Part shown: one piece after another, positions 1 to 24,304 of the stretch
Layout: each line of letters starts with the position of its first letter
Position numbering within the stretch: position 1 is the first letter of the stretch
Made by a program: the position numbers and the translations under genes
From: a virus
Length of the DNA: 24,304 nucleotides
IMG/VR virus record: IMGVR_UViG_3300029911_001830
Direction: 5' to 3' (one strand)
Notes under the pieces: generated by a model
What the model saw: the letters and a program-made list of their open reading frames with translations, nothing else
Told to the model about the DNA's origin: nothing
Databases searched by the model: none

Positions 1-459
1 CACCATCACCGAAATCCGATCCCGCACCTCGCCGTACAGGTCCCGACTGGTCGGCGGGTTCGTCCGCACATGGGTCGCCTTGGTGATCGCCGTTTCGGCT
101 TCCTCGCCTGTATCGGCAAGTTGACCCAACATCGCGGTCAGAATGGTCTCCTTGAGCTTCATTTCTTGCTCGCGAGTCAGGATGGCCGAAATCCCATGGT
201 GCAGATTCGCCTCGGCAATCTGCTGGCGGATCGCGTAAGCGGTTTCGATCAAACCGACCGCCGTCTGCAACGCGTCGGTGTTCTCCCGCGCCAGTTTATT
301 GATACGATCAAGCAACGCACTAGGCGGCCTGCCGTCATTATCACCGCGCAGCAACGCGTCATGGATGGAAATCGACTCGGCCGCTTTGAGAGAAAACTTC
401 TTCGCTGCGTCAATGGCTGCACGAACATAGCGGTCAGCCCGCCTCACGGTTACCTTCAT
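1..459 (-). CDS. hypothetical protein. N-terminus is in the window (ATG at 459-457); the gene continues past position 1
   Basis: Hand translation of the reverse complement gives MKVTVRRADRYVRAAIDAAKKFSLKAAESISIHDALLRGDNDGRPPSALLDRINKLARENTDALQ...GEVRDRISVMV. It stays open for 153 codons down to position 1, checked codon by codon. AGGTG lies 5 nt upstream of the ATG. Amino-acid composition is ordinary, whereas the overlapping plus-strand ORF 70..600 is Arg-rich in the way antisense frames of GC-rich genes are. It is absent from the ORF track only because its stop codon lies outside the window. Confidence 0.5.
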   Translation of the reverse strand, partial: MKVTVRRADRYVRAAIDAAKKFSLKAAESISIHDALLRGDNDGRPPSALLDRINKLARENTDALQTAVGLIETAYAIRQQIAEANLHHGISAILTREQEMKLKETILTAMLGQLADTGEEAETAITKATHVRTNPPTSRDLYGEVRDRISVMV

Positions 460-616
460 CTCAACACCTGTTTTCCAAGGACCAGCAGCCGGGCTGCCGT
501 GGCGCATCTTCTAGAAACCTCGATCGCCCCCGTCAACAGGTTTTTTGCTCGGTTTCACAGAATTCTCGGGTCCAACGAAACGGCGACACTTCACCGCTAG
601 GAACCTAAATATCGTT

Positions 617-1399
617 ATGCATGCGACGGAACTCTTCGAGACGCCTGAGATTGACCTGCGCAAACTGCGCTATGCACAACGCGCCTCGCATAAGTTCTCG
701 CAATGGCTCTACCAAGCCAATGCCAAGACGCCGCTCAAAGACATGGGCCTCTTTAATGTCCGGACGGCCAAAGGCGATGAACTGTGGCTGCTCCGCGCCA
801 CCGAAGTCGGCATCCCCTATCAGGACCTCTATATCGGCCTCGGCTGGAACCCAAAATCCACCAGTGATGCCTATGTCACGACCGCCACCATGGCCGGACG
901 GCAACACATGCTTTTGGTGATGATGCTGAAAGACGATCCGCGCGACCAAATCGACCTCGGCTACAAACTCGACTGGGCACAGTTCACCCATGAGTTTACC
1001 CATGTGATGGATTATCGACGCGGCTATACCCAACACAAAGCCAATGTCGCCAAATCCGGCAAACCGCCAGTTGCCGATCGGGCCGCGTATTATAACAGCC
1101 CGATCGAATTCAATGGCTATTATCAACAAGGCCTGCACACAATTATCTACAAACTCGCTCTCCTAGCGATGGCCAAGAAGCCACCCGATCGTTTCAAGAC
1201 CATTAGTTATAGCCAATTTCGCCGGGTCTATGACATCTGGTTCGAAAGCGCGTGGCTGCACAGTCTTAACACCGTCTACCAACGCAAGTTTACGCGTCGG
1301 TTCTATAAATTCTATCGGCTGGTGCAAACCACGTGGCCCGATATGGAGGCGATCCAAGACATCGCCAAACAAGACGAAGAATCGCCGGAATTCCACTAG
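617..1399 (+). CDS. hypothetical protein with an HEXXH (HEFTH) zinc-metallopeptidase-like motif. First gene of the plus-strand gene string
   Basis: ORF track lists 545..1399. The first ATG is at 617 (MHATELFE...), with a weak AGGA upstream. The HEFTH motif is encoded at 989-1003. The antisense alternative 605..1138 (-) has an odd composition (HHHQKH, GHGGGRD). Function was not recognised beyond the motif. Confidence 0.6.
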   Translation: MHATELFETPEIDLRKLRYAQRASHKFSQWLYQANAKTPLKDMGLFNVRTAKGDELWLLRATEVGIPYQDLYIGLGWNPKSTSDAYVTTATMAGRQHMLLVMMLKDDPRDQIDLGYKLDWAQFTHEFTHVMDYRRGYTQHKANVAKSGKPPVADRAAYYNSPIEFNGYYQQGLHTIIYKLALLAMAKKPPDRFKTISYSQFRRVYDIWFESAWLHSLNTVYQRKFTRRFYKFYRLVQTTWPDMEAIQDIAKQDEESPEFH

Positions 1400-1453: not shown

Positions 1454-1876
1454 ATGGCCGTCATTACCCAATCAAACAGTTCCAGTCAGCTTACACGGTA
1501 TTTCCTCGGCTATAGCACGCTGTATTCGAATATCACCGGCGTGCGTTCGCTCTATGACATTGATCTGATCAATATTGATCTGATGACATCATTCAATACA
1601 CGGGTGGGCGAGCGGGTTATGCGGCCCGACTACGGCTGCAAACTGTGGGATATGTTGTTTGAGCCGATGACGCCGATCCTGGCCGGTGCGATCATAGCCG
1701 AAGCCACCCGCATCTGCAACCTCGATGCCCGCGTGGTGCCCCAGACGATCACTCCGCTGCAAATCGACAAAGGGTTTCGCATCGAAGCCACGCTTTTGTA
1801 TCTGCCTTGGAACGTGATCGCCACATTCAGCGCCAATTTTGAACTCTCTGAAACCACCTATTTCAATCAGTCATAA
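1454..1876 (+). CDS. gp25/GPW-like baseplate wedge protein (TssE / P2 gpW / T4 gp25 family)
   Basis: 140 aa. The segment RSLYDIDLINIDLMTSFNTRVGERVMRPDYGCKLWDMLFEPMTPILAGAIIAEATRICNLDARV aligns with the T4 gp25 core RSIKNSLLGIITTRKGSRPFDPEFGCDLSDQLFENMTPLTADTVERNIESAVRNYEPRI. Both share P-D/E-F/Y-G-C-x-L-x-D-x-L-F-E-x-M-T-P, a conserved I/V-E run and an R-I/V pair. A GGTGGA RBS lies 6 nt before the ATG. The size is typical of the family. Confidence 0.8.
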   Translation: MAVITQSNSSSQLTRYFLGYSTLYSNITGVRSLYDIDLINIDLMTSFNTRVGERVMRPDYGCKLWDMLFEPMTPILAGAIIAEATRICNLDARVVPQTITPLQIDKGFRIEATLLYLPWNVIATFSANFELSETTYFNQS

Positions 1877-1887
1877 GGACCATTCCA

Positions 1888-4800
1888 GTGAGTTCGCGGC
1901 AAACAGACCTCCTCGCAGGAGACGAATGGACTTCGATCTATCAGGGTTTCACCCAGATCAATTTCAACGCCACCGACCCGGTAAGCATCAATCAAGCTCT
2001 TAGGAATTACATCCTCGTCAATTATCCCGAGAACTTCAATGATTGGATCATCTCCTCGGAATTTGTCGCGATAACCGATCTTCTTTCCTGGCTGGCGGGA
2101 ACATTGGCCTTCAAGACCGATATCGCGGCGCGTGAAAACTTCATCGACACCGCCGAATCGCGCGAAAGCATCCTGCGACTGGCGCGTTTCCTGTCATACA
2201 ATCCGAGCCGCTGTCAACCCGCCACTGGCGTGCTGAAACTCACCCAGGTAACGACCAGTGATGATGTGTACGACAGTCTTGGTAACGATCTCGCCAATCA
2301 GGCGGTGGTCTGGAATGACCCGAATAATATCAACTGGCAAGAACAATTCACCCTGGTCATGAACGCCGCGTTCATCCAAACCAATCCGTTCGGCCTGCCG
2401 TTAGCCTCCGGCACGGTGGCGAATGTGAGCACCGACCTGTACCGGATCAACGGTTTGGCTTCCGCCTCCAGCCTGAGTTTCAGCGCCACGGTCAGCGGCA
2501 CCGTGATGGCGTTCGAGATTTGCAATGGCGATTTCAGCGACAATGGCACTCTGTTCGAACGCGATCCCAATCCAGCCAATGCCCTGCAACTGTATTATTT
2601 GAACGACAGTAATGGTTATGCCAGCACGCGCACCGGTTTCTTCCTGCTGTTCAAACAAGGGAACACCGCCCAACAGGTGTTCCAGATCGCCACCCCGGTG
2701 CAGAACCAGTTGCTCGATCTGGGGGTAAGCAACGTCAATAATAACGATATCTGGGTGGATACCGTCGATGACAATGGCGCCGTGCAAATCGATTGGACCA
2801 AAGTCCCGGCGATCTTCAACAATAATATCACCTATAACAATCTCGCCAATACCGTACGCACAATCTACTCGGTGCTGACCCGCGATAACGATCAGGTCAC
2901 CCTCCGGTTCTCGGATGGCAGTTTCGGTCTCGCCCCGGTCGGCAATATTGCGGTGACCTACCGGGTGTCCAACGGTCTGACCTACCAAATCCAGCCGAGC
3001 GAAATCAGCAACATCACACTGCCGATCCAATATTTCAACACCGCCGGATCGCCCAAGCTGGTGTATCTGACGTTTTCGCTGCTGGAGACCGTGGCGAATG
3101 CCAGTGCAGCCGAAACGATCGAGCAAATCCGCCAGCGCGCCCCCCAGGTCTATGGTACGCAGAACCGGATGGTGTCCGGTCAGGACTACAATACCTTTCC
3201 GTTGTCCTCCAATCTGGCGGTCAAGATCAACGCCGTCAACCGAGTCTATAGTGGCCAATCGCGCTACATCGATCTGCATGATCCGACCGGCACCTATCAG
3301 GACCTGTCGATCTTCGGCGAGGATGGCCTGTTCTTCAGCGATCCGGCGAATACCTATTTCGAAGTGCCCACTACGCTCAATCGCACCTCATTACAAATCT
3401 TCAATGATTATATCGTGCCTGCGATCAATCAGTATACCACAGCGAATTTGATCCGCGACGTGCTGCTGCAGAATGTCCGGAACAACACCATCCGGGCGCC
3501 GCTCGATCAGGCCGGTGCGCCCTTTACCTGGGCGCCGTCCAGTGCCGCATTATTCAACACCAGCGGGACGTTCATCCATGATGCCAATCGGGGCCGCGTC
3601 GCCCTCCCCAGCCTGCCCGCTGCGGCCGGGTTGATCCAGGTCGGGGCGCTGTTACAGTTCAGTGTCAACAGCACCCTGGTTTGGGTTTCGGTGGTCAGCC
3701 TCGGCAATGCGATCGATACCCCCTTGGTGGTCAATACGGCAGGGCCAGTGACGCTGTCGCAAAGCCTGCCAAGCGGGGCGATCCTGCTCGCTGTGCTGCC
3801 CCAGGTGGTTACCACGGTGCCATCGACCCTGAACACCCCGAGCGGGTTGTCGGTCAATATGCTCTCGGGCTATCTCGATCTGCGGCTGTCCTTCTCGCTG
3901 CTCTACGATTATGCCACCGGGCTTTGGGTTCTGGGCACGGCGCAGAACAGTTTTGGCGCGCCTCAGGCGACGCTGGGCGGGCCGAATGGGACCACGGTGC
4001 TGATCGGGCTGGTTAACATTGTCGGCGGCGTGTGGCGGATCAATACGCGCGGCCTGCGCTATGTGTTCGAAAGCCTCGGCGCGGTCGAATGGTACGACAA
4101 TGGCGTGCGCACCCTGGCGCAGACCACGGGCGAAGCCACGGCCGATAATCTCAGCGTGCTGCGGATCAATCCCAATCTGAACGACCCGAGGGGCTATGCG
4201 TTGGGAATCGATTACGGCCTCACCATCGATCGGCTCTGGACCTATCCGGATGGCACGGCCGAACCCCGGCGCACCACGGTCTTGTTTGCTGATAGTAACG
4301 GTGATGGCGTGCCGGATCGGCCCGACACGTTTTACAACCTCATCTCCGGCAGCCCGGCGACAAACTATTTGTTCTGGAGCAACACAGCAGTGCCTCCGTA
4401 TGACCAACCATATTACACAGTGAACGGGTATGACAATGATGGTTTGCTGCAAGCGGATACCCCGCCGCTCGGCACGGTCGGCTTTCAGGTCGTCTCTTCG
4501 GTCACCCCATTAGCGAATGAAACCTTTTGGGTGTATCAACTCACCGGCTGGACGCAGGACACCACGAGCAGCTATCGCTTCGCCATCGGACGCGGTCCGA
4601 ATGTCGCGGCCAATTGGATCAGCGCCTCGGCCAGCGCCACGCCCAGTGGCGATGCGTTATTCTTTCATTGGCAACATTACGCCCCGAGTGATCATCGGAT
4701 CGATCCGGCCAGCACCAATATCGTCGATATTTTTTGCCTGACCTACTCGTATGACAGTGCGGTGCGGCAATGGATCACAGCGGGCGCGATTGCCGCCCAG

Positions 4801-5274
4801 CAACCCTATCCGCCAACCGAACTGGACCTCAGTCTGGCGTTTTCCGGGTTGGAAGATTTCAAGATGTTCTCCGACACGATCGTGTGGCGGCCCGTGCAAT
4901 ATCAATTCCTGTTCGGTGCCGCTGCCGATCCGGCCCTGCAAGCCAAATTCAAAGTCGTCCGGGCGACCAATTCGGCAGTCAGCGATGGCGAAATCCAGAG
5001 CAGCATCCTTGCCGCAATCAATGTGTTCTTTGCCGTCAGCAACTGGGATTTCGGCGAAACGTTCTACTTTACCGAATTGGCCGCGTATATCCATCAGCAA
5101 CTGGTCGGGCAAATCCTGTCTGTCGTCATCGTGCCAGTGATCGCGAATGGCGCATTCGGGGACGGGTTCGAGATACCGTGCCAAGCCAACGAGATTTTCA
5201 TCAGCGTGGCACAGGTCGCAGATATCGTTCTGATCGCGTCCAACACCGCGACCAACCTGCGGATCGCAAATTAA
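1888..5274 (+). CDS. large structural protein, putatively baseplate-J/gp6-like. The assignment comes from position only
   Basis: Uninterrupted 1128-codon ORF with a GTG start, AAGGA 9 nt upstream and a 12-nt gap after the gp25-like gene. In P2, T4, eCIS and T6SS the gene following the gp25 homolog is the J/gp6/TssF wedge protein. I could not confirm a family motif by eye. Its stop codon TAA (5272-5274) directly abuts the ATG of the next gene. Confidence 0.8.
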   Translation: MSSRQTDLLAGDEWTSIYQGFTQINFNATDPVSINQALRNYILVNYPENFNDWIISSEFVAITDLLSWLAGTLAFKTDIAARENFIDTAESRESILRLARFLSYNPSRCQPATGVLKLTQVTTSDDVYDSLGNDLANQAVVWNDPNNINWQEQFTLVMNAAFIQTNPFGLPLASGTVANVSTDLYRINGLASASSLSFSATVSGTVMAFEICNGDFSDNGTLFERDPNPANALQLYYLNDSNGYASTRTGFFLLFKQGNTAQQVFQIATPVQNQLLDLGVSNVNNNDIWVDTVDDNGAVQIDWTKVPAIFNNNITYNNLANTVRTIYSVLTRDNDQVTLRFSDGSFGLAPVGNIAVTYRVSNGLTYQIQPSEISNITLPIQYFNTAGSPKLVYLTFSLLETVANASAAETIEQIRQRAPQVYGTQNRMVSGQDYNTFPLSSNLAVKINAVNRVYSGQSRYIDLHDPTGTYQDLSIFGEDGLFFSDPANTYFEVPTTLNRTSLQIFNDYIVPAINQYTTANLIRDVLLQNVRNNTIRAPLDQAGAPFTWAPSSAALFNTSGTFIHDANRGRVALPSLPAAAGLIQVGALLQFSVNSTLVWVSVVSLGNAIDTPLVVNTAGPVTLSQSLPSGAILLAVLPQVVTTVPSTLNTPSGLSVNMLSGYLDLRLSFSLLYDYATGLWVLGTAQNSFGAPQATLGGPNGTTVLIGLVNIVGGVWRINTRGLRYVFESLGAVEWYDNGVRTLAQTTGEATADNLSVLRINPNLNDPRGYALGIDYGLTIDRLWTYPDGTAEPRRTTVLFADSNGDGVPDRPDTFYNLISGSPATNYLFWSNTAVPPYDQPYYTVNGYDNDGLLQADTPPLGTVGFQVVSSVTPLANETFWVYQLTGWTQDTTSSYRFAIGRGPNVAANWISASASATPSGDALFFHWQHYAPSDHRIDPASTNIVDIFCLTYSYDSAVRQWITAGAIAAQQPYPPTELDLSLAFSGLEDFKMFSDTIVWRPVQYQFLFGAAADPALQAKFKVVRATNSAVSDGEIQSSILAAINVFFAVSNWDFGETFYFTELAAYIHQQLVGQILSVVIVPVIANGAFGDGFEIPCQANEIFISVAQVADIVLIASNTATNLRIAN

Positions 5275-8200
5275 ATGACCAAACGGCGTTTCATCTCCCT
5301 GCTGCCCGGCTGCAACCAAACCGCCGACCTGACCGCCTTCTTCGGCGCCACGGTCGATGCCTTATTCCAGCCAGGAATTTCCGACAGTATCAATGGTTAC
5401 ATCGGTCACCAAATCAGCGGGGCCGACCCGACCACCGATTTCTATCTCGCCGAACCGGATCAGACTCGCGCGTTCTACCAGTTGGAACCCGGCATGGTGA
5501 GCCTCAATTCCACCAGCAATACGATTCGCAATGCCCTGACCTATCCGGATTTCATTTCTTATCTCGATGACACCGGGGCGATCGTCAGCAATCAGCAGCG
5601 GCTGTTCGACACCGCATTGTATAGCTGGGCGCCGCCCATCAATATCGACGCCTGGATGAACTATCGGCAATACTATTGGTTTGGCGATGGCGCCGAGGAT
5701 ATGCCGGTCCTGGCGATTAACGTTCCAATCACGTATTATACCGGCGACGGGGTTACCACGCTGTTCGCCCTGCCACCATCCATGACCTCGATCACCCTCG
5801 CGCAGGAAACCCCGACCGGTTATGTTGCGGGTGAAACAATGCCAACCACCCTCAGTCCGGATGGCAGCAGTCTGATCTTCGCAGATGCGCCTGCTCTTGG
5901 CACAGTGGTCATGGTGACGCGCATTGCCGACTTTATCGGCACCGTGACCAACATGACGAGCATCGATGTGACCGGACTCACCTCAAATGATACTACCCCC
6001 TCACGCGCGCCCAGTCCGCCGGTCACCCAGCTTAGCTCGGGGATGCTGCTGCGTATCTACGATACCTTGCATCTGACCGAAGGCTGGGGTGGTCCGGCCT
6101 GGGATACCACGCCCTGGGACGCAGCGGCCTTCGATCAGTATATCATCGATGGCGTCGGTCAGAGCATCCGGTTCACCCCGTATGGCACGCTGATCCGGGG
6201 TCTCGCGGCACAATACGTCACCATTGATCGCTCATCGCAGCAAACCAACGCATGGTCGAGCCGCAATCTGTGGGTGCATCGCGCCACCTTCCTGTGGGCC
6301 GGAGTGGATTTCGTCAGCCGTCAAGCCTTGCGCCCAATCATCGAATTCGTCCGCGATCTGGTGTTATGGCAATGCTCTGCCTCACTCTACAAACCGACCC
6401 CTCAGCAAGGCAGCACCCTCACCTTCGCGGGAACCTTGCCGGTCGCCACCACCGTCAAGGGGTTTGATGTCGAGATCGGTGTCACGAGCGAAACGTTAAC
6501 CACGCCGATTCCGGTTGTTACAGTCATCACCACAGCATCCACTGCGGTCACCCTGGCGACACCCTTGCCTGCGCTACTGGGACCGTTCGCGGCAGGCACT
6601 TCCATGACCTTCCAGCAGATTTGGTCGGAGGATGTGGCGCCATTGTTCATGCTGTATGATCTCAGCACCACCCCCGCGCCCTTGAACGATCCGGTTCGTT
6701 ATCCCAACAGCACGTTTTATGGCGATCACATTTTCGGCTACGCGCTGGGCACCGGGGCGGCCGATCCGGTCATTTTGCAACCCTTGGTGTTTGACAGCAA
6801 TGGTATCATTGTCTACGACAATGCGATCGCCACGACACAATATCTGGCCGGATCGACGCCGATCATCGGGCTTTATCGTTACGCCACGCATAGTAGCGCG
6901 GGTGATCCGCAATATTACTCGCCGTGGCACGATGCGGGCATCACCAGCCAGTCGATCGCGATCAATGGCTTTTGGGATATTCCGGTCAATTTGCAAGCCA
7001 ATCCCTTGGCGCAAGAGGTTAGCCGGGTGTCGAACAGCGATGTCCAGCAGCATTTTGCCGACTTGATCAGCCAGCAAAGCAATTTCAGCGGCACGGCCAG
7101 TGCCAGCAACAACTATCGCGACAGTCCGCGCGATCTGTCTCTCGGCACCCAGGTTCTCCAGCATCGGGCGACCCTGCTCAAGGCCATGCTGCTGGCGTCG
7201 TCCAGCCAATTCGATCTGACCCTGGCACTGCGCTACGCCGATCAGGAATATAACAGATTCCGTAACAAATTCGCCCGCAAGCTGGTTGATCTATGCAATC
7301 GTGGTGTGCTGCGAGTGGATATCGATCCTGCCAGTACTTGGGTGGCGACGACCCTGGCGGCCTTGAAGATTGGCCATACCAATGCGATGCCGTTTTGGCT
7401 CAGCACGATGGCGGGCGGCCAATGGTTCATTCCGCCCACGGCCTCGGCCCTGGGTATCCAACCGGCTGTGGTGCCTGCGCTGCTGGTCGATGCCTTGTAT
7501 AATCCGCCGATTACTTTCATCCAGGGGCATGACGGCAGTCGCACACCCGCCAATAATGACTGGCGCGATGCGATCATCCTGGCGCTGGAACAACTAATCT
7601 ACACCAATCTCGATCCTGCGTTGCAGACCGAAGCGCGGCCGGTGTTTGACATTCAGCAATGGTGTGGCGGGCATTTCTACGCCCCCGCGAACGGCTATAG
7701 CCACGCCGAGGTGAGCAGCCTGCTGGCGCCATTCTTCGAAATCTGGGCGCAGAACAACGGGCTGGATTATCGCAATGCGCTGGGCTACGATCCGAGCAAT
7801 CCTTTCACCTGGAACTATCGCGGCAGCCTCGACCTCTTTGGCTTGCCGATGGCTGGAAGCTGGCGCGCGGTCTATCACGATTATTACGGCACCGATGCGC
7901 CACATCTGCGTCCCTGGGAAATGCTGGGCTTTCAAACTCAGCCGTCCTGGTGGGTGACGCAGTATGGCGCGCCGCCTTACACCCCCAGCAATCGGGTCTG
8001 GATCGACGCCACGAACGGCTATATCGCGGGTGGCGTGCGCGCGGGCTATGATGCGGTCTATTCTCGGCCCGGTCTGCTGGCGGTCTTGCCGGTCGATGCG
8101 ACGGGCCATCTGCGCGATCCCACCCAAATCGGTCTGGTCACGGTCACTTCGGGGCTCGTCGCGCTCTCCAGCCAGCCCTGGCAAGCAGGCGATTTCGGTC

Positions 8201-11200
8201 CGGTCGAGATGCTTTGGCGGACCACCCCGTCGTTTCAATATGCCCTGGCCTGTGTCAGTTTTTTGATGAAGCCCGCCCGCTTCACCGATACCTGCTGGAC
8301 GACCCTCACGCGCGGCCTGATCGCTGATCAATGGGTCGATCTGAACACTTTGTTGCGTTCCACTGACTCAACCAATCTGCTGCATGGCGAGAGCGATGCG
8401 GCAGGCCAACCTGTGATGGTCACTGGCGTCTCGCAATGGCTCGCCGACTATCTGGTTTCGCAGGGCGGCACGAGCAGTCAATTGGGCGATGCGGTGCGCG
8501 GCTTGGATGTGCGCCTGCTGCATCAGATGGCGGGGTTCGTATCGAGCAACACGGTGCAGGCGGTGTGCGATAGTTTCGGCTTGCTACCTGCCGAGAATGT
8601 GCAGACAATTCTCTATACATCGCCACCCAACGATACCGAGGTCTATAGCGGCGTGATCGTCGAGTGGACGGGCGCCGGGTGGCGGGTGATTGGCTATGAC
8701 GGGCGCACCCCTTCCTTCACCATCATCCCGCCTGATCCGGCCTCGGTCAAAGGCGTGATCAGTCTCGCCAGCGTCGCGGAACCGAAGATCAGCCCCTGGC
8801 AAGCCAGCACGTGGTATGCGCTGAATACTTACTGCAATTCGCAGGGTTCGGTGTATCAGTGCCAACGCTCGCACACCAGCGGCCCGATCTTCGAACTGAG
8901 TTTCTGGACCCCGCGTCCCGATCTCAGTCCATTCGCGATCCCGGCGCCACGCATCGTCACCTATGCGACCGGTTTCAAGGCGCTCCAACAAGTCGCCTAT
9001 GGCACGATATTCAACACCTATCAGGCGGTCGGCGATTTTCTGCTCGGCTATGAACGTTACTTGGTATCACGGGGGTGGATTTTCAGCGGCACCGATCCGC
9101 AATCCGGCGCGATCCTGAACTGGTCGATGGCGGCATTGGAATTCCTGTCCTGGACGCAGGTCAAATGGCAGCCCGGCAACTTCATCGCCCTGTCGCCCGG
9201 ACAGCGGCAAATCCAATTCAGCACGCTCACCGGGACGATCAATAACGTGGAGGACAACAGCACGGGGTTCTTCGGGCTGTGCGATCGCGTCGGCGCCCCG
9301 ATCAGCCAAAACAACGTCCTGCTCAGCCGTCTGGATGGCGATCTGACCATCACCGCGCTGAATGCCGATATCTTCCTGGCCCGGCTCTATCTCAGCACCA
9401 TCGAACATTTGTTAGTTTTTGATAACGTAACCATCTTTGACGATGCCATCTATCTGCCGTTGTTCAATCTCCGCCAGCCGCGTCTGCAATTGATCTGCAA
9501 TCGGGCGCAGCAATGGAGCGGACGGCTGGACGCACCCGGCTTCGTCATCACCGGCAACACCTTGGCCTCTAGCTTCGAGAAAGCCGCCAATGATGTGCGC
9601 TACATGTTTGACATCGAACTGGCAGATGTGGCCGACCTGCGGGACTACGCACGTCACGTGATCGGCTATGCCGAGCGTAATTACCTGGATAACCTCCTGT
9701 TGGCCGAAGTCGAGCAGTTTGAGTTCTATCAAGGAATGATCCAGCAGAAGGGTGCCCCCGGCGTGTTCGAGAAACTGATGCGCAGCACCCGCGCATCCGG
9801 CAACAGCACGCTATCGTTCCTCGAAGAATGGGGCTTTCAGGTCGGCCAATACGGGGCTCCGGCCGATGGGTTCGTGACGTTCCAACTGGCGCAGACCGAT
9901 ACCCGTGACGATCCGCAGTTTGTCAGTTTTCAGCCGCTCGCCAATGCGCCGCTGAACTGGATCATGCTCGCGCCGGGCGATCCGCGCTGGTATGACGTGC
10001 CGCCGAACCCGAGCCAATTTTTCACCATGCAGAGCGGCTTCGTCCCTGCCGCCTTGCCGATTGCCGGGCCGGTGCGGCTAACCGATGTCGCCAATACAGT
10101 GTTCGCCTGGGCCGACGTGCCGACGGTGTTCAGCCAAGAATTGCAGGCAGGTACTGCTACCTTGCCCGCCGGAGAACGCCTCTGGGTGTATGAACGAGCC
10201 GATCTAACCTTTACGGTGCTGGAAAGCTTTAACACAGCGGCGCTCCCAAATGCGCTGCTCAGCGTGCTCGCACCCGTCATCGGCAGCACCGATCGAACCG
10301 CGACCCAGACCACGCGACTGACCCTCAGCCAACCACTCAATCTGCAACAAAGTGACATTGGTAGCTACATCGTCATTGATGCGCCCAGTCTGTCCTATCC
10401 GGACCTGCATGGTGTCGCAACCTTGATCGCCATCAACTTCGCCAATAATACCATCGATATCGATTCGGTTAGCACACAGGGCTACGTCTATCTGCCCACC
10501 GACACCGCGCCTATGGTGCGCATTCTGCGCGAAATGCGGTTTCCTGATCTGGCGACGCTGATGGTCGCGGGCTACGATTGGATGATCGGCGACCTCGCCT
10601 GGATCGACGGTTCAGCCACGATGCCCTGGACGGTGCAGCAATGGGATGGCGGCGAATGGTCTCTCGCCCGCCAGCAGCCCCTGCGCAATAATCCGACGAC
10701 GATCAGCGAGACGCTGATCTATGCAGCCGGGACGCAGATCACGGGTATGCTCATGAGCAGCAACACGCCAGTGGTGAACGCCATCGACGTGATCGATCCG
10801 GTTGCTGGCTTAATTGCAGGCCGCGCCCGCAAGGAACTCGATTATCTCACCCCGTTCGATCCGGCCCGCTATAACGCCGGAGCGACATCTGCTGCGCTCA
10901 ACCCGTGGGGGCCGAATGAACGCGGCCGGGTGTGGTGGAATATCGCCACCGTCAAGTTTATCGATCCCTCCACCGATGTCTTAGGCGCAAGTAACGATCG
11001 CGATGTGGTCGAGTTGCACTATCGCATCCAGCAATGGACCCGTGTGGCGCCACTTAGCAGCGTCGATGTGTATGAATGGATCGAAAGCCTCGTCGATCCG
11101 ACGACCTATATCGCCCAGGCCATAACCGATTCGTCCTTGGGACGGGTGTATCTCACGGACGCGCCCTCCTGGGTCGAGCGGGTGGTGTATGATCCGACCC

Positions 11201-19340: not shown

Positions 19341-19800
19341 ATGGCTATGAAAAGCAGCAGGCGCAGCCTTGGGATAATGAATCAGTCATCCTCGATCGGG
19401 ATGGCTACGAAAAGACGCATTCGCATTTAGGTGGCTACGAAAACGCCGACAGCTACAAAAATCTGCTGAGCCGTCACCCCGTTGGTATCCGGGATGCAGT
19501 CATTCCTGTTCGAATGGCTACGAAAACTGGCTTGCGTAGCGGCTACACGGGCTGATGGGATGCAGCCACTCCTGTGGCTACGAAAAGGAAGGGGAGTTGC
19601 CTACGACCATTCCGGGAAGTATTTGCACGGCATGATAGCAAAGGCGCTATTACAGTCATCCATCTTGTTTGGCTGGCTACGGAAACGGAAGACCTCAAAT
19701 GGGGGACGATCGGATGCAGCCATCCGATGGATGGCTACTAAAATCATGAGAGTCCGCGCACGACGAAGCTCCAGTCACCCGGTATGGTGGATGGCTACGA
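19341..19800 (+). repeat. degenerate CRISPR-like mini-array in plus orientation, about 10 decayed units
   Basis: Units such as GGATGCAGTCATTCCTGTTCGAATGGCTACGAAAAC, GATGCAGCCACTCCTGTGGCTACGAAAAG, GATGCAGCCATCCGATGGATGGCTACTAAAAT and CAGTCACCCGGTATGGTGGATGGCTACGACAAAC match the reverse complement of the downstream CRISPR repeat (GGTGCAGTCACCCTATCGTTGGGTGGCTACGAAAAC). Spacing is irregular at 30-70 nt. Confidence 0.55.
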
Positions 19801-19841
19801 CAAACTTTAACATCTTGTGCCGCCAAAGACTAAATACTTGC

Positions 19842-20096
19842 ATGACCCTGCGAGAACTTTTGCAAATCACCGAGCGAAAACATTCATTGCACTATCACGC
19901 GCGACTCAATCCGGAGAACATGTGGTTCGACATCGTGGACATGAACGATCACGTGGTGGCGATCGATGTGTCGCCCAATCCCAAGCGGGCGCGAGAGATT
20001 GCGGCGACCTTCTATCCAGGGCAGATCATCGAGAGCGCCCGCCAGTCCCAAAGGAATCGTAGTTCTCGTAGCCATCAAGAGGATGACTGTTCATAG
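19842..20096 (+). CDS. small hypothetical protein (84 aa) between the two inverted repeat blocks
   Basis: ATG at 19842 gives MTLRELLQITERKHSLHYHARLNPENMWFDIVDMNDHVVAIDVSPNPKRAREIAATFYPGQIIESARQSQ... This is the only protein-like part of the 204-aa track ORF 19482..20096, whose 5' part is a read-through of the repeats. No clear RBS. The 3' end runs into a repeat-like TCTCGTAGCC...GGATGACTG element. Confidence 0.3.
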   Translation: MTLRELLQITERKHSLHYHARLNPENMWFDIVDMNDHVVAIDVSPNPKRAREIAATFYPGQIIESARQSQRNRSSRSHQEDDCS

Positions 20097-20125
20097 CCGG
20101 GGATCGACGCCTGGGGACGTCCGCT

Positions 20126-20340
20126 CTTTTCGTAGCCTTTTCGTAGCCGCCACAATGTGTGACTGGCGTTGACGCCAAGGCCAAGGCCGACCTAGAGCTT
20201 TTACCGTAGCCTTTTCGTAGCCGCCATCCTCAGCATAACCTTTTCGTAGCCGCCTCTGACTGACTGAATCGTAGCTATTTGTCCCTCAGCATAACCTTTT
20301 CGTAGCCATTTCGGGTGACACCTACTGTTTTCGTCGCCCT
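20126..20340. repeat. degenerate CRISPR-like repeat block in the opposite orientation to 19341-19800
   Basis: Repeated TTTTCGTAGCC(G/A)CC units include a tandem pair CTTTTCGTAGCCTTTTCGTAGCC (20125-20147) and two identical 24-mers CCTCAGCATAACCTTTTCGTAGCC at 20228-20251 and 20284-20307. It ends with GGGTGACACC...GTTTTCGTCGCCC. Confidence 0.5.
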
Positions 20341-20516
20341 TCGTGATCGTCCTGTGATCGATTCTCGTGACCGTGCGCAGCCTCGGTTGCGATCATGGCC
20401 TGCAACTCGTGTCAGATCGCACACCAGAGTGTATGCTGGCGATCGGGTTGGGTCAACCGTTTGGTTTGATCGAACTTCATGTTAAATAATGAAAACACTG
20501 AGGATGCCAACAAACG

Positions 20517-21275
20517 ATGAGTATTCGCGCCTGGATGCGGCTGGTGGAGGCGATCATGTCCCCCGCAGCCCCACCGCCCGTCACCGAGACGGCCGCCTTC
20601 CAGCAGTGGTTTGCGGGCAGTAAGGTGGTCGATAAGGCGGGGAAGCCGCTCCGCTGCTATCACGGCACCCAATCGGACTTTCATACGTTTTCCAATGAGG
20701 ATGCGCCGGGGCGGGGCGGTCTGTTGGCGTTCTTTTCGGTGAAGCCGCAATTTGCCAGTTCCTATGCCTCGGACGAGCGCTCGCCTGAGGTGCGGGCGGG
20801 CGCCCAGGTGATGCCGGTCTATCTGCGCATCGTCAATCCATTCGATTACCGCAAAGATTATCACATGGCCGGGAGTTTCTATGATGAGACCGGCGGCATC
20901 CAGGATCGTTTTGAGAGCAACCGCATCCTCATGGGCCTCGGTTGGAAGATCGATAACATTGACGATGTCTCGACGCCGCTGCTGACGGAAAAGCAGTTTA
21001 CCAGGGCACTCCGCAAGGGCAGTTGGGATGCCTTGGAGGCGCCGGACTTCGTGGAGTATATCCATGATGCTGGTTATGACGGGATCGTGTTGATGGAAAA
21101 CCGCAGCCTCAACTTCGCCATCTTCGAGGCTAATCAGGTTAAGAGCGCGATTGGCAATCGGGGGACCTTCGATCCCGAGTCCGATCACATTGGTGAATCC
21201 GCACCGGCGCGCGATACCGGGTGGCGGGCGTTTCACCGTATTTCACGGCTCGGCCGCAAACACCCTGAGGTCTAG
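20517..21275 (+). CDS. hypothetical protein, possibly ADP-ribosyltransferase-fold (YHGT motif)
   Basis: 252 aa, GAGGA 13 nt upstream, ordinary composition. LRCYHGTQSDFHTF (YHGT at 20658-20669) resembles the H-G-S/T NAD-binding motif of H-Y-E-class ARTs (PARP, Tpt1/KptA). Possible Tyr and Glu follow in FASSYA and NFAIFEANQV. The opposite-strand ORF 20412..21236 is Arg-rich and antisense-like. Confidence 0.6.
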   Translation: MSIRAWMRLVEAIMSPAAPPPVTETAAFQQWFAGSKVVDKAGKPLRCYHGTQSDFHTFSNEDAPGRGGLLAFFSVKPQFASSYASDERSPEVRAGAQVMPVYLRIVNPFDYRKDYHMAGSFYDETGGIQDRFESNRILMGLGWKIDNIDDVSTPLLTEKQFTRALRKGSWDALEAPDFVEYIHDAGYDGIVLMENRSLNFAIFEANQVKSAIGNRGTFDPESDHIGESAPARDTGWRAFHRISRLGRKHPEV

Positions 21276-21526
21276 TATTTTAGGGAAAACGTGCCATTGC
21301 CGTGATCGATTAGCTGGTCGGTGCGATGCAAGGAGAACGTGCCGTCGCAATGATCCAGAAGCTGGATGTCGCCGGTTTCGAGGTAATACACCACCGAGTC
21401 GTGCGCCTGTTCGCGCGTGACGCCAGCAGGGATTTTATCGTAGTCGAGACAGCTTTCGATGATCGCATCGAGGCATTTGCGAGCGCCTTCGGGAAGTTCT
21501 TTGTACGGGACTGTAGGTTTTGTCAT
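21272..21526 (-). CDS. small hypothetical protein, convergent with the ART-like gene. Its start is uncertain (ATG 21526; alternatives ATG 21619, TTG 21655)
   Basis: Encodes MTKPTVPYKELPEGARKCLDAIIESCLDYDKIPAGVTREQAHDSVVYYLETGDIQLLDHCDGTFSLHRTDQLIDHGNGTFSLKY with an internal duplicated motif DH-x-(D/N)GTFSL. Its stop (CTA, 21272-21274) overlaps the plus-strand TAG (21273-21275) of the ART-like gene within CTAG. The opposite-strand ORF 21326..21751 looks non-coding. Confidence 0.45.
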   Translation of the reverse strand: MTKPTVPYKELPEGARKCLDAIIESCLDYDKIPAGVTREQAHDSVVYYLETGDIQLLDHCDGTFSLHRTDQLIDHGNGTFSLKY

Positions 21527-21582
21527 GCCGGTGTGGATAGCATTGCCCGACCCCTGGTGTCCAGATGGAGTATCTGTCTTGC

Positions 21583-21909
21583 TCAAGATAGTATCCGCAA
21601 TAACAGCAGGACGAACCATGTGATGCCCAAAGCTGATACGAACATGTTCAGCCAAAACGCCACCCGCATCAGCCAGTGGAATCTCTGGTTGAAACTGCGT
21701 GACGTCTCGATGATATCATGCATGAGTTCAATGCGATCGCGGATGGCGTGATCAAAGGCCATCAACACGATCAAGTGGTGCAGGTCTTGCAGCACGATCT
21801 CGATCGCAAGGGTCATGGCCAGAAACGGCGATGCGCCGCCTTGTTGCAGTTCGGCGAATAGCGCTGCAATCACGGGACGCACATCGGGTTCGGGCTGTTG
21901 CATCACCAT
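21583..21909 (-). CDS. small hypothetical protein with a hydrophobic C-terminal helix
   Basis: MVMQQPEPDVRPVIAALFAELQQGG...FWLNMFVSALGITWFVLLLLRILS. A strong GGAGGG RBS lies 9 nt upstream of the ATG (minus strand). It is the first gene of a two-gene minus-strand unit that reads toward the ART-like gene. Confidence 0.55.
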   Translation of the reverse strand: MVMQQPEPDVRPVIAALFAELQQGGASPFLAMTLAIEIVLQDLHHLIVLMAFDHAIRDRIELMHDIIETSRSFNQRFHWLMRVAFWLNMFVSALGITWFVLLLLRILS

Positions 21910-21995
21910 GGTCTACAACCCTCCAATACGAATTGGAAGCGTCGGATTTGCGCTTTTCGATCGCGTGGTTGTTGTTGGCTATATTTGCAGATGTC

Positions 21996-22029
21996 ACCTC
22001 AAGCGGCCTTGGCTGCGTCCGCTTGAGGT
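21996..22029. other. perfect inverted repeat (11-bp stem ACCTCAAGCGG/CCGCTTGAGGT, 12-nt loop)
   Basis: Read directly from the sequence. It lies between the start of the minus-strand gene at 21909 and the first degenerate repeat unit at 22046. A loosely T-rich tract (TGCGATCGTGCTGTTTGTTTT) follows on the plus strand. It is not a textbook intrinsic terminator on either strand. Confidence 0.25.
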
Positions 22030-22045
22030 TGCGATCGTGCTGTTT

Positions 22046-23768
22046 GTTTTCGTAGCCGCCCAAGGGTGACTGAAACCAGCTTGCCGGTCCTCTTGCTGTC
22101 GGTCTTGTGGTCGTATCCATTTCCATTTTCATAGCCATGCCAACGGGATGACTGCACTTCTGTGTAGTTACTCGTGAGTGACGATTCTGTTTTCGTAGCC
22201 ATCCCATGGCTCTTGAAAGGACGTCCGCAGTCGTGCCCTTGTCGTAGCCGCCGGATGGTAGGGTGAGTGAGCCGATGATGCCCGTCTGGCCGTGATGTAC
22301 GGGGTTGTCGTAGCCATCCTAGCCACCCAACGATAGGGTGACTGCGCCTCCTGCGCTCAGCCCTCGGATACATTTTTCGTAGCCACCCGAAGGGTGACTG
22401 AAACTGAGGCATTCGGGGTTCGCAAGGCTCACACGTTTTTCGTAGCCTTTTCGTAGCTTTTTGTAGCCTTCAATCCCCGCCCATTTCTGTATGTTGTCGT
22501 AGCCACTCTCTCTCATAGCCGACGAACGACATAGCGCGATCGTCGCTCTCATACAATGCATCAAATAAGCTCTCGCGCCGTGCACTCTCATTTTCGTAGC
22601 CACATGGCCGGGTGACTGAACCGCCATGCATTCGCCATGCAAGTTTTTCGTAGCCACCCAGGTATACCCCCAACGGGCGCCAGTTGAATTTTTCGTAGCC
22701 ACCGAAACATCGGGTGACTGGAACTCAGCGGCTAGCTCGCCGACCTGGGATTGATATTTTCGTAGCCACCCACTTTCCATAGCTACCCAAAAAAGGTGAC
22801 TTTAAACCCGCCCGCCACACAAGATTTTCGTAGCCACCCAAGAGTGACTGAACCCGAACCCAACTGGATCAGTGGTCTTTTAGTAGCCCACGCAAATTTT
22901 CGTAGCCGCCCGAATGCCGGACCGTACCCATGCCACCCTGTGTGTTGTTGTAGCGACCCACCAATCATCGATTTCCGTTTTCGTAGCCGTCCCGAGTGGG
23001 GTGACTGAATCTCGGAGCCACCAAGCCAGACGCAACATTCTTTTTGTAGCCGTCCGAGTGGCGGAGCGACTGAAGCCTTGGCCAGCATGTCGATCATCAG
23101 CTTCTGTTTTCTGTAGCCACTCGATGTAGACTGTCGAGGGCTGTCGGGCAAGTAGTTTTGTAACACCAAAGGTTGTAGGGTCTCCGAAACGCGTGTTTTC
23201 GTAGCCATCCAAAGGCGCTGTTCCACCTCAGGCATGGGTGTTTTCGTAGCCATCCAGCCATCCAAAGACAGGATGACTGAGCCAATCCGTCACATTTTTC
23301 GTAGCCCCTGCGAGGGCTGTCGGAGCGGTGTTTTCGTAGCCTCGAACGCAACAAGTCGTTGCCATTTCTTGTCGTAGCCGTCCAAAAGGCAGGATGACTG
23401 TGGGGGAGTGGTCTGCACGGCGAATTCAGCGATGTTTTCGTAGCCACCCAACGGCACGGCATGACCGAAGCTCCGATCGAAACTTTTTTCGTAGCCATAG
23501 GGTGACTGAATCGTCCCGAACTAAATCGGTTTTTGGAGCGGCCTACGCCGACGGCACGATCCGATGGCAGTTCTCGTAGCCTTTTTTCGTAGCTATAGGG
23601 TGACTGATCGTAGCGGCCGGGCAGCGACTCCAAAGTTTTCGTAGCCACCCAAGGCTGGGAAACCGGCTGAGCCCTTTTCTTTTTGTAGCCGCGTCCGGCG
23701 ACTGAGGCTGAATAAAAACTGCCGCTCCATCGCTGCACCAGCAGGTGTTGCGGCCTGCACAGGCTTTC
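22046..23768. repeat. extended zone of decayed CRISPR repeat units, many of a shorter variant GTTTTCGTAGCCACCCAAGGGTGACTGAAAC
   Basis: About 30 units beginning (G)TTTTCGTAGCC at irregular 45-100-nt spacing. Examples are 22046, 22374, 22590, 22690, 22825, 22976, 23488 and 23569, which end GGGTGACTGAA(A/C)C and lack the CGATA segment. Units at 22128 and 22303 are closer to the intact repeat. There are tandem partial copies at 22436-22468. A 13-mer CGAGGGCTGTCGG recurs in two different inter-repeat segments (about 23130 and 23306). Confidence 0.7.
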
Positions 23769-24304
23769 GTTTTCGTAGCCACCCAACGATAGGGTGACTG
23801 CACCCAGGATGATGGTGGCGTACTGGCCAAAGGTGTTTTCGTAGCCACCCAACGACGGGGTGACTGCACCGACCTGCTCTTGGCAGGTTATCGCAATTTT
23901 TCGTAGCCACCCAACGATAGGGTGACTGCACCCGCGCTCACCCGGATCGTCGATGGCTTTTTGTTTTCCGTAGCCACTTCCTCAATCCAGTTTTCGTAGC
24001 CACCCAACGATAGGGTGACTGCACCGAGATCGAGGTGAAGTGGTTGCCTGTCTGTTTTCGTAGCCACCCAACGATAGGGTGACTGCACCCAAAACCAATG
24101 CTGAGGATAATCCGTCCCAGTTTTCGTAGCCACCCAACGATAGGGTGACTGCACCCATCCTGTCCAGCGGCGCTTGAACGCGCCAGTTTTCGTAGCCACC
24201 CAACGATAGGAATACAACGCTCAGTTCGTCAGTTTTCGTAGCCACCCAACGATAGGGTGACTGCACCACCGGCACTCCAGGAGAACGAACAGTACTAGTT
24301 TTCG
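23769..24304. CRISPR. CRISPR array with 36-nt repeat GTTTTCGTAGCCACCCAACGATAGGGTGACTGCACC. It continues past the window end
   Basis: Repeats at 23769-23804, 23835-23870, 23897-23932 (begins TTTTTC), 23990-24025, 24054-24089, 24120-24155, 24186-24210 (truncated to 25 nt), 24232-24267 and 24298-24304 (cut by the window end). A degenerate copy lies at 23963-23989. Spacers are unique and 26-30 nt long. The reverse complement ends ...GGCTACGAAAAC, like typical repeat 3' handles. The conserved end is at high coordinates, so the leader is probably beyond 24304 and transcription probably runs on the minus strand. Confidence 0.9.

Follow-up and report, generated by a model that had tools for sequence, protein, structure and literature searches.

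The gene at 1454-1876 of the window (by which we mean the whole 24,304-nucleotide stretch of IMG/VR record IMGVR_UViG_3300029911_001830) in all probability encodes a gp25-family inner-baseplate subunit of an uncultured, very large contractile-tailed phage. We give this reading a probability of roughly 0.9, with the location of the protein in the virion and its stoichiometry both drawn from homology. That the gene specifies a gp25-family baseplate wedge protein had been proposed in a preliminary description of this DNA, and the proposal is now backed by profile searches, sequence comparisons, a predicted fold and synteny. The identification serves as an annotation anchor: through it, the region 1454-15924 can be labelled as the operon for the inner-baseplate wedge of an uncultured huge phage. 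The gene and the conserved elements within it are as follows.

1454-1876, + strand: predicted gp25-family baseplate wedge protein / sheath initiator (140 aa, ATG to TAA, stop included)
1625-1675, + strand: conserved block PDYGCKLWDMLFEPMTP, residues 58-74, with the phage-type (F/Y)GC motif at residues 60-62
1724-1732, + strand: D91-A92-R93, where gp25/TssE have their EPR(L/I) motif; aligned to T4 E-P-R

Identification of a gp25-family gene

The reading frame is preceded by a Shine-Dalgarno-like AGGTGG, 4 nt before its ATG. The comparison with the Pfam profile PF04965 (GPW_gp25) that the preliminary description had recommended gave a match above threshold: 34.3 bits against a curated gathering cut-off of 27.2 (E 2.1e-8), the aligned part being residues 39-84, which cover only positions 7-52 of the 96 in the profile. 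The same label is attached, as a precomputed annotation, to an identical database protein and to 59 of the 62 homologues listed. Among the PHROGs, the protein matches two families described as "baseplate wedge subunit", phrog_43 (E 1.6e-14, residues 30-132) and phrog_261 (E 3.3e-11). Matches of such strength are well outside what chance would give.

A HMMER search of 177,635 PDB sequences retrieved gp25-type subunits exclusively, from phages, extracellular contractile injection systems (eCIS), pyocin and related systems. The top matches were AlgoCIS (7aeb, E 7.8e-9) and the Anabaena CIS (7b5h, E 4.5e-8), which scored better than T4 gp25 itself (5iv5_T and 5iw9_A, E 1.8e-5, 28 bits, residues 39-96 aligned), and further matches included PlPVC1, Afp9, Pvc9, Klebsiella phage KP1, the Geobacter protein 2ia7 and pyocin PA0617. 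T4 gp25, at 132 aa, is of similar length to the 140-aa protein described here and belongs to the same Pfam family with the same fold; overall identity between the two is ~22-24%. An alignment of 25 relatives has 26 invariant columns, and with the family profile 1112 representative clusters are recovered at E<=1e-3, of which 253 remain at E<=1e-10; the gp25 family to which this protein belongs is a large and ordinary one. A search of a plasmid collection produced nothing beyond a 32-residue, chance-like match in an Embleya replicon. The product of 1454-1876 is a genuine and ordinary gp25-type baseplate protein, and one that adds nothing new on how gp25 proteins work.

Predicted fold

An AlphaFold2 model, computed from an alignment of 25 homologues, has a mean pLDDT of 73; the 10-residue blocks of its core reach 80-91 over residues 61-130, and the N-terminal 22 residues fall below 50. 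Helices were assigned to residues 36-48, 63-67 and 74-90 and strands to 94-104, 107-116 and 121-130. The protein is thus predicted to pack three helices against a three-stranded antiparallel sheet, as gp25 does. When this model was compared with the PDB using Foldseek, the best match was 2ia7 (E 1.6e-5, TMt 0.76). Every one of ranks 1-17 was a baseplate or sheath-initiator chain of gp25 type, from phage, eCIS, pyocin and diffocin. The structural comparison with T4 gp25, also suggested earlier, agrees with the sequence-based identification (5iv5/5iw9, TM 0.57-0.66, rmsd 2.1-3.0 A). In BFVD there were 37 matches at E<=1e-3, and those with names are almost all baseplate wedge, gpW or sheath initiation proteins.

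Conserved motif blocks

The preliminary description held that two blocks of the protein match T4 gp25 nearly residue for residue. This is a fair account of the first of them: PDYGCKLWDMLFEPMTP aligns with T4 PEFGCDLSDQLFENMTP ungapped in the HMMER alignment, with 11 of the 17 residues identical in addition to D/E and Y/F pairs. For the second block it was an overstatement, as the alignment of AIIAEATRICNLDARV with TVERNIESAVRNYEPRI requires a one-residue gap and contains just two identities in 16 (N and R), together with the conservative pairs I/V, D/E, T/S and V/I. The part of this second block that matters biologically, T4 E-P-R opposite D91-A92-R93, is nevertheless aligned.

Within the first block, P58, G61, C62, W65 and E70 are invariant among the 25 relatives, and either YGC, WGC or FGC is present in all 62 close relatives, the form here being Y60-G61-C62. 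T4 gp25 and the window protein both carry this phage-type (F/Y)GC motif and the block P-[DE]-[YF]-G-C...L-F-E-x-M-T-P. In the superfamily, YGL has been described as a hallmark of type VI secretion systems (T6SS), T4 gp25 and a Geobacter prophage protein having FGC instead (PMC3352280).

The EPRL motif is reported to be conserved throughout the gp25/TssE superfamily (Lossi et al. 2011, PMC3352280). The same work predicted, from the Geobacter structure, that the acid and the Arg of the EPR motif form a salt bridge, and found that replacement of the motif's glutamate in HsiF1 (E105A) abolished function (PMC3352280). In the window protein D91-A92-R93-V94, where the last helix leads into the first strand, pairs with T4 E-P-R-I; Glu is replaced by Asp and Pro by Ala, so that a literal E-P-R is absent. 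The D and the R at this position are nonetheless invariant in the 62 close relatives, and it is the residue between them that varies (S in 39, T in 12, Q in 4, A in 3, and others). Among 149 more distant cluster representatives recovered with the family profile, DPR (69) is more frequent than EPR (30), followed by DSR (18), and the literal EPR is missing from 119 of the 149. Judging from these alignments, it is the acid-x-Arg pair that defines the EPR position, and the missing proline characterizes the clade rather than being a defect. That a proline-less D-[STAQ]-R version of a "strictly conserved" EPR has become fixed in a clade is a modest point that goes beyond routine annotation.

The wedge operon and its downstream partners

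The gp25-like gene is followed immediately, on the same strand, by two much larger genes.

1888-5274, + strand: gp6/gpJ-like baseplate wedge protein, 1128 aa, with a GTG start 11 nt past the gp25 stop
5275-15924, + strand: giant 3549-aa virion structural protein (phrog_10938), with an ATG that abuts the preceding stop

The 1128-aa protein matches the "baseplate wedge subunit" family phrog_10646 at 1015.6 bits as well as phrog_219 (E 6.4e-25), and its precomputed Pfam label is DUF8360. It has a partial match to TIGR02243 ("putative baseplate assembly protein", E 2e-6), which is well under the family cut-off, and T4 gp6 gives collinear BLASTP matches to it (E 1e-4 and 0.08). The 3549-aa protein scores 1262.9 bits against phrog_10938, "virion structural protein", and its gene occupies the slot that belongs to gp7, TssG or gpI in other systems.

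From gene position only, we infer a gp7-like role for this giant. Its first 600 aa have no PDB match by phmmer, and an hhalign comparison of its N-terminus, as an 8-sequence alignment, with T4 gp7 gave a probability of 0.05%. An AlphaFold2 model of residues 1-420 reached a pLDDT of 51, with residues 1-131 below 50, the 7 N-terminal homologues available having limited the model. The giant may equally be a gp7 homologue that has diverged past sequence detection. The presence of gp25 beside a 3549-aa protein where gp7 or TssG would be expected is, like the altered EPR motif, a modest point beyond the routine.

The preliminary description took the gp25-like gene as identifying its surroundings as contractile-tail or baseplate derived. 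This applies well to 1888-5274 and 5275-15924, as it does to the upstream genes found on longer contigs (see below), but it does not extend to the region from 15.9 to 24.3 kb. Upstream within the window, the 284-aa ORF at 545-1399 has no Pfam, PHROG or NCBIfam match, and its one weak match is to the jumbo phage Salicola phage SCTP-2, so that we do not assign it to the baseplate.

Both T4 and the window phage have gp53-, gp5- and gp6-like genes in their baseplate sets, and the order on the window and its longer contigs (53-like, hub, 5-like ... 25, 6-like, giant) resembles both the T4 series 53-5-6-7 and the P2 W-J-I or tssE-F-G arrangements. However, gene 25 of T4 is absent from the 53-5-6-7 stretch that we inspected, whereas here the gp25 gene lies directly upstream of the gp6-like one. 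The T4 partners are also much smaller, gp6 having 660 aa against 1128 and gp7 having 1032 aa against the 3549 of the giant.

Relationship to cultured jumbo phages and to longer contigs

A megablast comparison of the window in full with 50,697 phage records gave no match; the window is therefore novel at the nucleotide level, and every relationship described here is at the protein level. When the gp25-like protein was compared with the same 50,697 records by tblastn, 105 of them matched, and the 30 listed of these 105 are all phages in the range of ~280-490 kb, or incomplete records of phages of this size. Among the matches listed are Phosso, Atu_ph07, EJP2, GAP32, CBB, PA5oct-like phages and RaK2 / K64-1. 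The closest cultured homologue is that of Sinorhizobium phage Phosso (XYS97453, 39.9% identity, E 4e-23), and Agrobacterium phage Atu_ph07 has a homologue in CDS 182 (AUZ94964, 35.9% identity, E 2e-18).

The resemblance to these two phages extends well beyond a single gene. The trio of gp25, gp6-like and giant genes has the same order and orientation in both Phosso and Atu_ph07 (CDS 182-181-180 in the latter). The identities of the trio to Phosso are 40%, 39-42% and 37%, where the second value refers to the Phosso "baseplate wedge protein" XYS97452 and the third to a 4555-aa virion structural protein that aligns over ~1000 aa and has an additional N-terminal match. The published description of Atu_ph07 assigns CDS 182 (390 nt) and CDS 181 (3,597 nt) to the baseplate wedge and calls CDS 180 (13,350 nt) a structural protein of the T4-like kind; the three genes fall inside the cluster of virion proteins, CDS 170-215, that was defined by ESI-MS/MS, and they are conserved across the Rak2-like phages (PMC6102473). 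The place of the CDS 182 orthologue in this cluster lends indirect support to a predicted position of the protein where baseplate and sheath meet.

At the residue level, the window protein shares with the gp25 proteins of Phosso and Atu_ph07 an N-terminal F-x-G-[FY]-S-T element. At the EPR position these two phages have D-S-R, and the window protein D-A-R. Their trio continues from a wedge protein of ~1200 aa to a giant of 4450-4555 aa, so that the giant of the window is ~1000 aa shorter. The flanks differ as well: in Phosso and Atu_ph07 the upstream neighbors are nucleases and hypothetical genes, and downstream both phages lack a homologue of the vault protein that is found in the window. Finally, unlike these two phages, the window phage and its host are uncultured.

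Metagenome contigs from 45 index blocks encode the identical 140-aa protein; the longest of them measures 259 kb (ena:ERZ27250025:k141_1547704), and relatives of the protein lie on contigs of 472-637 kb. On the contigs with the identical protein, the upstream region (1-9 kb from the gp25-like gene) contains three more baseplate genes. One encodes a gp53-like wedge protein of 101 aa (phrog_7145), another a hub-like protein of 1136 aa (phrog_27932), and the third a gp5-like spike of 1017 aa that combines a Phage_base_V OB domain, a DUF2345 beta-helix and an SLT transglycosylase. On the basis of synteny with cultured jumbo phages and of contigs of at least 259 kb, we hold that the source of the window is very probably an uncultured jumbo or huge contractile-tailed phage akin to Atu_ph07, Phosso and the Rak2-like phages.

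Alternative identities

Phages are not the only source of gp25-type proteins, and the protein could in principle be a subunit of the Afp9/Pvc9/Cis type belonging to a phage-derived, non-viral contractile injection system or tailocin. The best PDB sequence matches are in fact to eCIS (AlgoCIS and the Anabaena CIS), with Afp9 and Pvc9 matching as well; these eCIS subunits (AlgoCIS 7aeb_S, Anabaena All3318 7b5h, Afp9 6rao_H and Pvc9 6j0n_D) are of the same family as the window protein and, together with PA0617 of the R-type pyocin, occupy the sheath-initiator position in solved baseplates. However, eCIS and R-type pyocin are non-viral and have wedge partners of ordinary size, whereas the context of the window is that of a huge phage. 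All of the close cultured relatives are jumbo myoviruses, and the trio is common to Phosso and Atu_ph07, which have been imaged and form plaques, with 37-42% identity over thousands of residues. The contigs of up to 259 kb, and of 472-637 kb for the relatives, speak against an injection system too, as do the upstream gp5-like spike with its transglycosylase, which is typical of phage cell-wall penetration, and the vault-protein homologue, whose sole matches in the phage collection are uncultured huge phages of 462-735 kb. With ~45 kb of the 259-kb contig covered, we therefore regard an injection-system origin as very improbable.

A still smaller probability attaches to the protein being the TssE of a bacterial T6SS. 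The name "TssE-like" had been applied in the preliminary description, and at the level of superfamily and fold it is apt: TssE/HsiF proteins have the same fold and, like the window protein, an acid and an Arg at the EPR position, and the succession of a small gp25-like gene, a large TssF/gp6-like gene and a next wedge gene resembles tssE-tssF-tssG. Beyond that level the name does not hold. TssE/HsiF proteins have YGL where the window protein has YGC, and the NCBIfam library, which we take to include the TssE equivalog TIGR03357, yielded zero families at E<=1 for the 140-aa protein. The neighbors are a 1128-aa gp6-like phage protein and a 3549-aa virion protein, both matched by phage PHROGs. 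Within the +/-10 kb inspected we saw neither TssB/C nor Hcp, TssK or ClpV, and no T6SS families were found among the genes from 10 kb upstream to ~20 kb downstream of the gp25-like gene; these genes either have phage PHROG/Pfam labels or are unlabelled. On the NCBIfam result, the YGC motif and the gene context together we reject a TssE identity. Equally negligible, in our estimation, is the chance that the gene specifies a soluble protein that has the gp25 fold and some other role, such as an IraD-like anti-adaptor or a "tail lysozyme" enzyme. IraD does have the gp25 fold, and there is a weak Foldseek match to it (6od1_B, E 0.11); similarly, several members of the family still go by the legacy name "tail lysozyme" in PDB and UniProt. 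Nevertheless, just 11 nt separate the gene from a gp6-like wedge gene, and the structural operon to which both belong is conserved in jumbo phages; the cell-wall-degrading SLT domain of the locus is located on the gp5-like spike instead. Moreover, no lysozyme activity was detectable in the gp25-like HsiF proteins, and the authors urged that this annotation be reconsidered (PMC3352280). The product of 1454-1876 is in all likelihood not a lysozyme.

Proposed role in the baseplate

If the protein is, as we believe, a gp25-type inner-baseplate subunit of a huge phage, its function can be outlined by analogy with the solved structures of T4, pyocin, eCIS and T6SS. There would be one copy of gp25 per wedge and hence six per baseplate, situated atop the inner baseplate. 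The loop that carries D91 and R93 would, as in T4, pyocin and T6SS, dock on a helical core bundle, and this bundle would presumably be made of two gp6-like chains and the N-terminal part of the next wedge protein. On its exposed side, the predicted sheet (strands 94-104, 107-116 and 121-130) would gain further strands from the termini of the subunits in the first sheath ring. Such an extension of the sheet would nucleate the polymerization of the sheath and would keep it anchored to the baseplate during contraction.

Since the N-terminus of the giant has no detectable similarity to gp7, there is room for a more radical, though on balance unlikely, variant of this scheme. Here gp25, with its proline-less D-x-R instead of EPR, would dock on a giant of 3,500-4,500 aa that has replaced gp7 and that perhaps also builds the peripheral baseplate and the fibre apparatus. 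If this were true, the replacement of gp7 by the giant would constitute a wedge architecture that has no solved counterpart.

Other features of the window

The region from 15.9 to 24.3 kb is not tail-related. It encodes a major-vault-protein homologue as well as an ADP-ribosyltransferase of the ART-PolyVal type, and it also contains a repeat field that is non-coding and CRISPR-like. The vault-protein homologue has matches in only 3 records of the phage collection (37-38% identity), these being the uncultured huge phages of 462-735 kb mentioned above. We considered whether it might correspond to the Phosso gene at the equivalent downstream position and rejected this, the two not being homologous. 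The repeat field comprises ~60 CRISPR-like repeats; it contains no tRNA and matches no Rfam family at E<=1. The exact repeat and a degenerate hairpin pattern are both absent from 185,579 species genomes, and a search of IMG/VR for the exact repeat pattern was likewise negative, so that the repeats pointed to no host. No protospacers of the field were found in ~60 kb of this phage. The vault-protein homologue and the repeat field are more unusual components of the window than the gp25 gene itself.

The CRISPR-like repeat field

The right-hand end of the window is occupied by a long field of short repeats that resembles a CRISPR array:

Repeat field and neighbouring reading frames
19343-24304, mostly minus strand, with 8 copies on the plus strand: non-coding field of about 60 CRISPR-like repeats
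20517-21275, plus strand: stand-alone ART-PolyVal ADP-ribosyltransferase of 252 aa (PF18760, E 7.3e-24)
about 21272-21655 and about 21583-21909, minus strand: two small ORFs following the ART-PolyVal gene

In the matching metagenome contig stretches L009 (13247-14138) and L010 (8325-9216), which reach beyond the window, the field can be followed to about position 24650. In minus-strand sense, its 11-mer core GGCTACGAAAA occurs 54 times at no more than one mismatch, against a chance expectation of 0.23. The full 36-nt unit, GGTGCAGTCACCCTATCGTTGGGTGGCTACGAAAAC on the minus strand, folds into an 8-bp hairpin (AGUCACCC/GGGUGGCU) with the 8-nt tail ACGAAAAC behind it, an architecture associated with Cas6-processed repeats. 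From 23769 rightwards there are about 14 perfect copies separated by spacers of 26-30 nt; some 45 degenerate and irregularly spaced copies extend over 20063-23700 on the minus strand, and the eight plus-strand copies lie at 19343-19803. In the degenerate copies the tail is preserved, and the stems are often compensated (e.g. CAUCC/GGAUG). Stems of 5 bp or more are present in 37 of the 60 copies; shuffles gave 18 on average and never more than 28. The spacers have the same content in two samples.

One possible reading is an orphan CRISPR array carried by the phage, with a long trailer that has decayed; another is a repeat-mimic decoy, similar to an RNA anti-CRISPR. No cas labels were seen within 10 kb downstream, and a self-protospacer search with the spacers across roughly 60 kb of this phage found none. 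The field had no family match in Rfam, the exact repeat pattern was not found in IMG/VR, and neither the exact repeat nor a degenerate hairpin pattern was present in 185,579 species genomes.

The ART-PolyVal gene lies inside the repeat field, at its middle.

A phage-encoded vault protein homologue

To the left of the repeats lies a homologue of a eukaryotic protein, separated by two small reading frames from a giant ORF:

The giant ORF and the genes between it and the repeat field
5275-15924, plus strand: giant single ORF of 3549 aa, 44% of the window
15957-16154, plus strand: ORF of 65 aa
16144-16710, plus strand: ORF of 188 aa (180 aa as called in metagenome contigs)
16757-19279, plus strand: homologue (840 aa) of the major vault protein (MVP) of eukaryotes, identified by Pfam and MVP chain matches

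The 840-aa protein matches Pfam MVP_shoulder (E 4.7e-18; 65.8 bits, cut-off 25) and, more weakly, the Vault_3, Vault and Vault_2 repeats, and its residues 347-716 match the human and rat MVP chains (E 3-7e-15). Vault homologues are also carried by the uncultured huge phages LR756501 and LR756503 (735 kb) and LR756500 (462 kb), with 37-38% identity over 96% of the length of the 840-aa protein. A PHROG search returned no family, and the gene at the equivalent position in the cultured Sinorhizobium jumbo myovirus Phosso has no homology to it. Neither small ORF has a family match; the hydrophobic C-terminal segment of the 188-aa product, LLAIVSGAIAICSLVVTVLLHF, is probably membrane-spanning.

Over its central region (about residues 558-1553), the giant ORF shares 37% identity with a 4555-aa virion protein of Phosso. 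Its only Pfam hint is a weak, below-cut-off resemblance to the carbohydrate-binding CBM_5_12 (residues ~1175-1204, E 0.009). Its candidate role is a gp7-like core together with peripheral baseplate or fibre.

The left end of the window

Genes upstream of gp25
1-507, minus strand: gene cut by the window start, 223 aa in the matching contig L004 (8383-9054), no family match
545-1399, plus strand: ORF of 284 aa immediately preceding gp25 (260 aa as called in some contigs)

The 284-aa product had no match in Pfam, PHROG or NCBIfam, and its only match is to hypothetical proteins from the Salicola phage SCTP-2 (genome of 440 kb), at 25.8% identity and E 4e-5. It contains an HExxH-type motif (FTHEFTHVMDY) and may be a metallopeptidase. 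A plus-strand ORF at 70-600, taken from a mechanical listing, overlaps the minus-strand gene at 1-507 and is probably not a gene.
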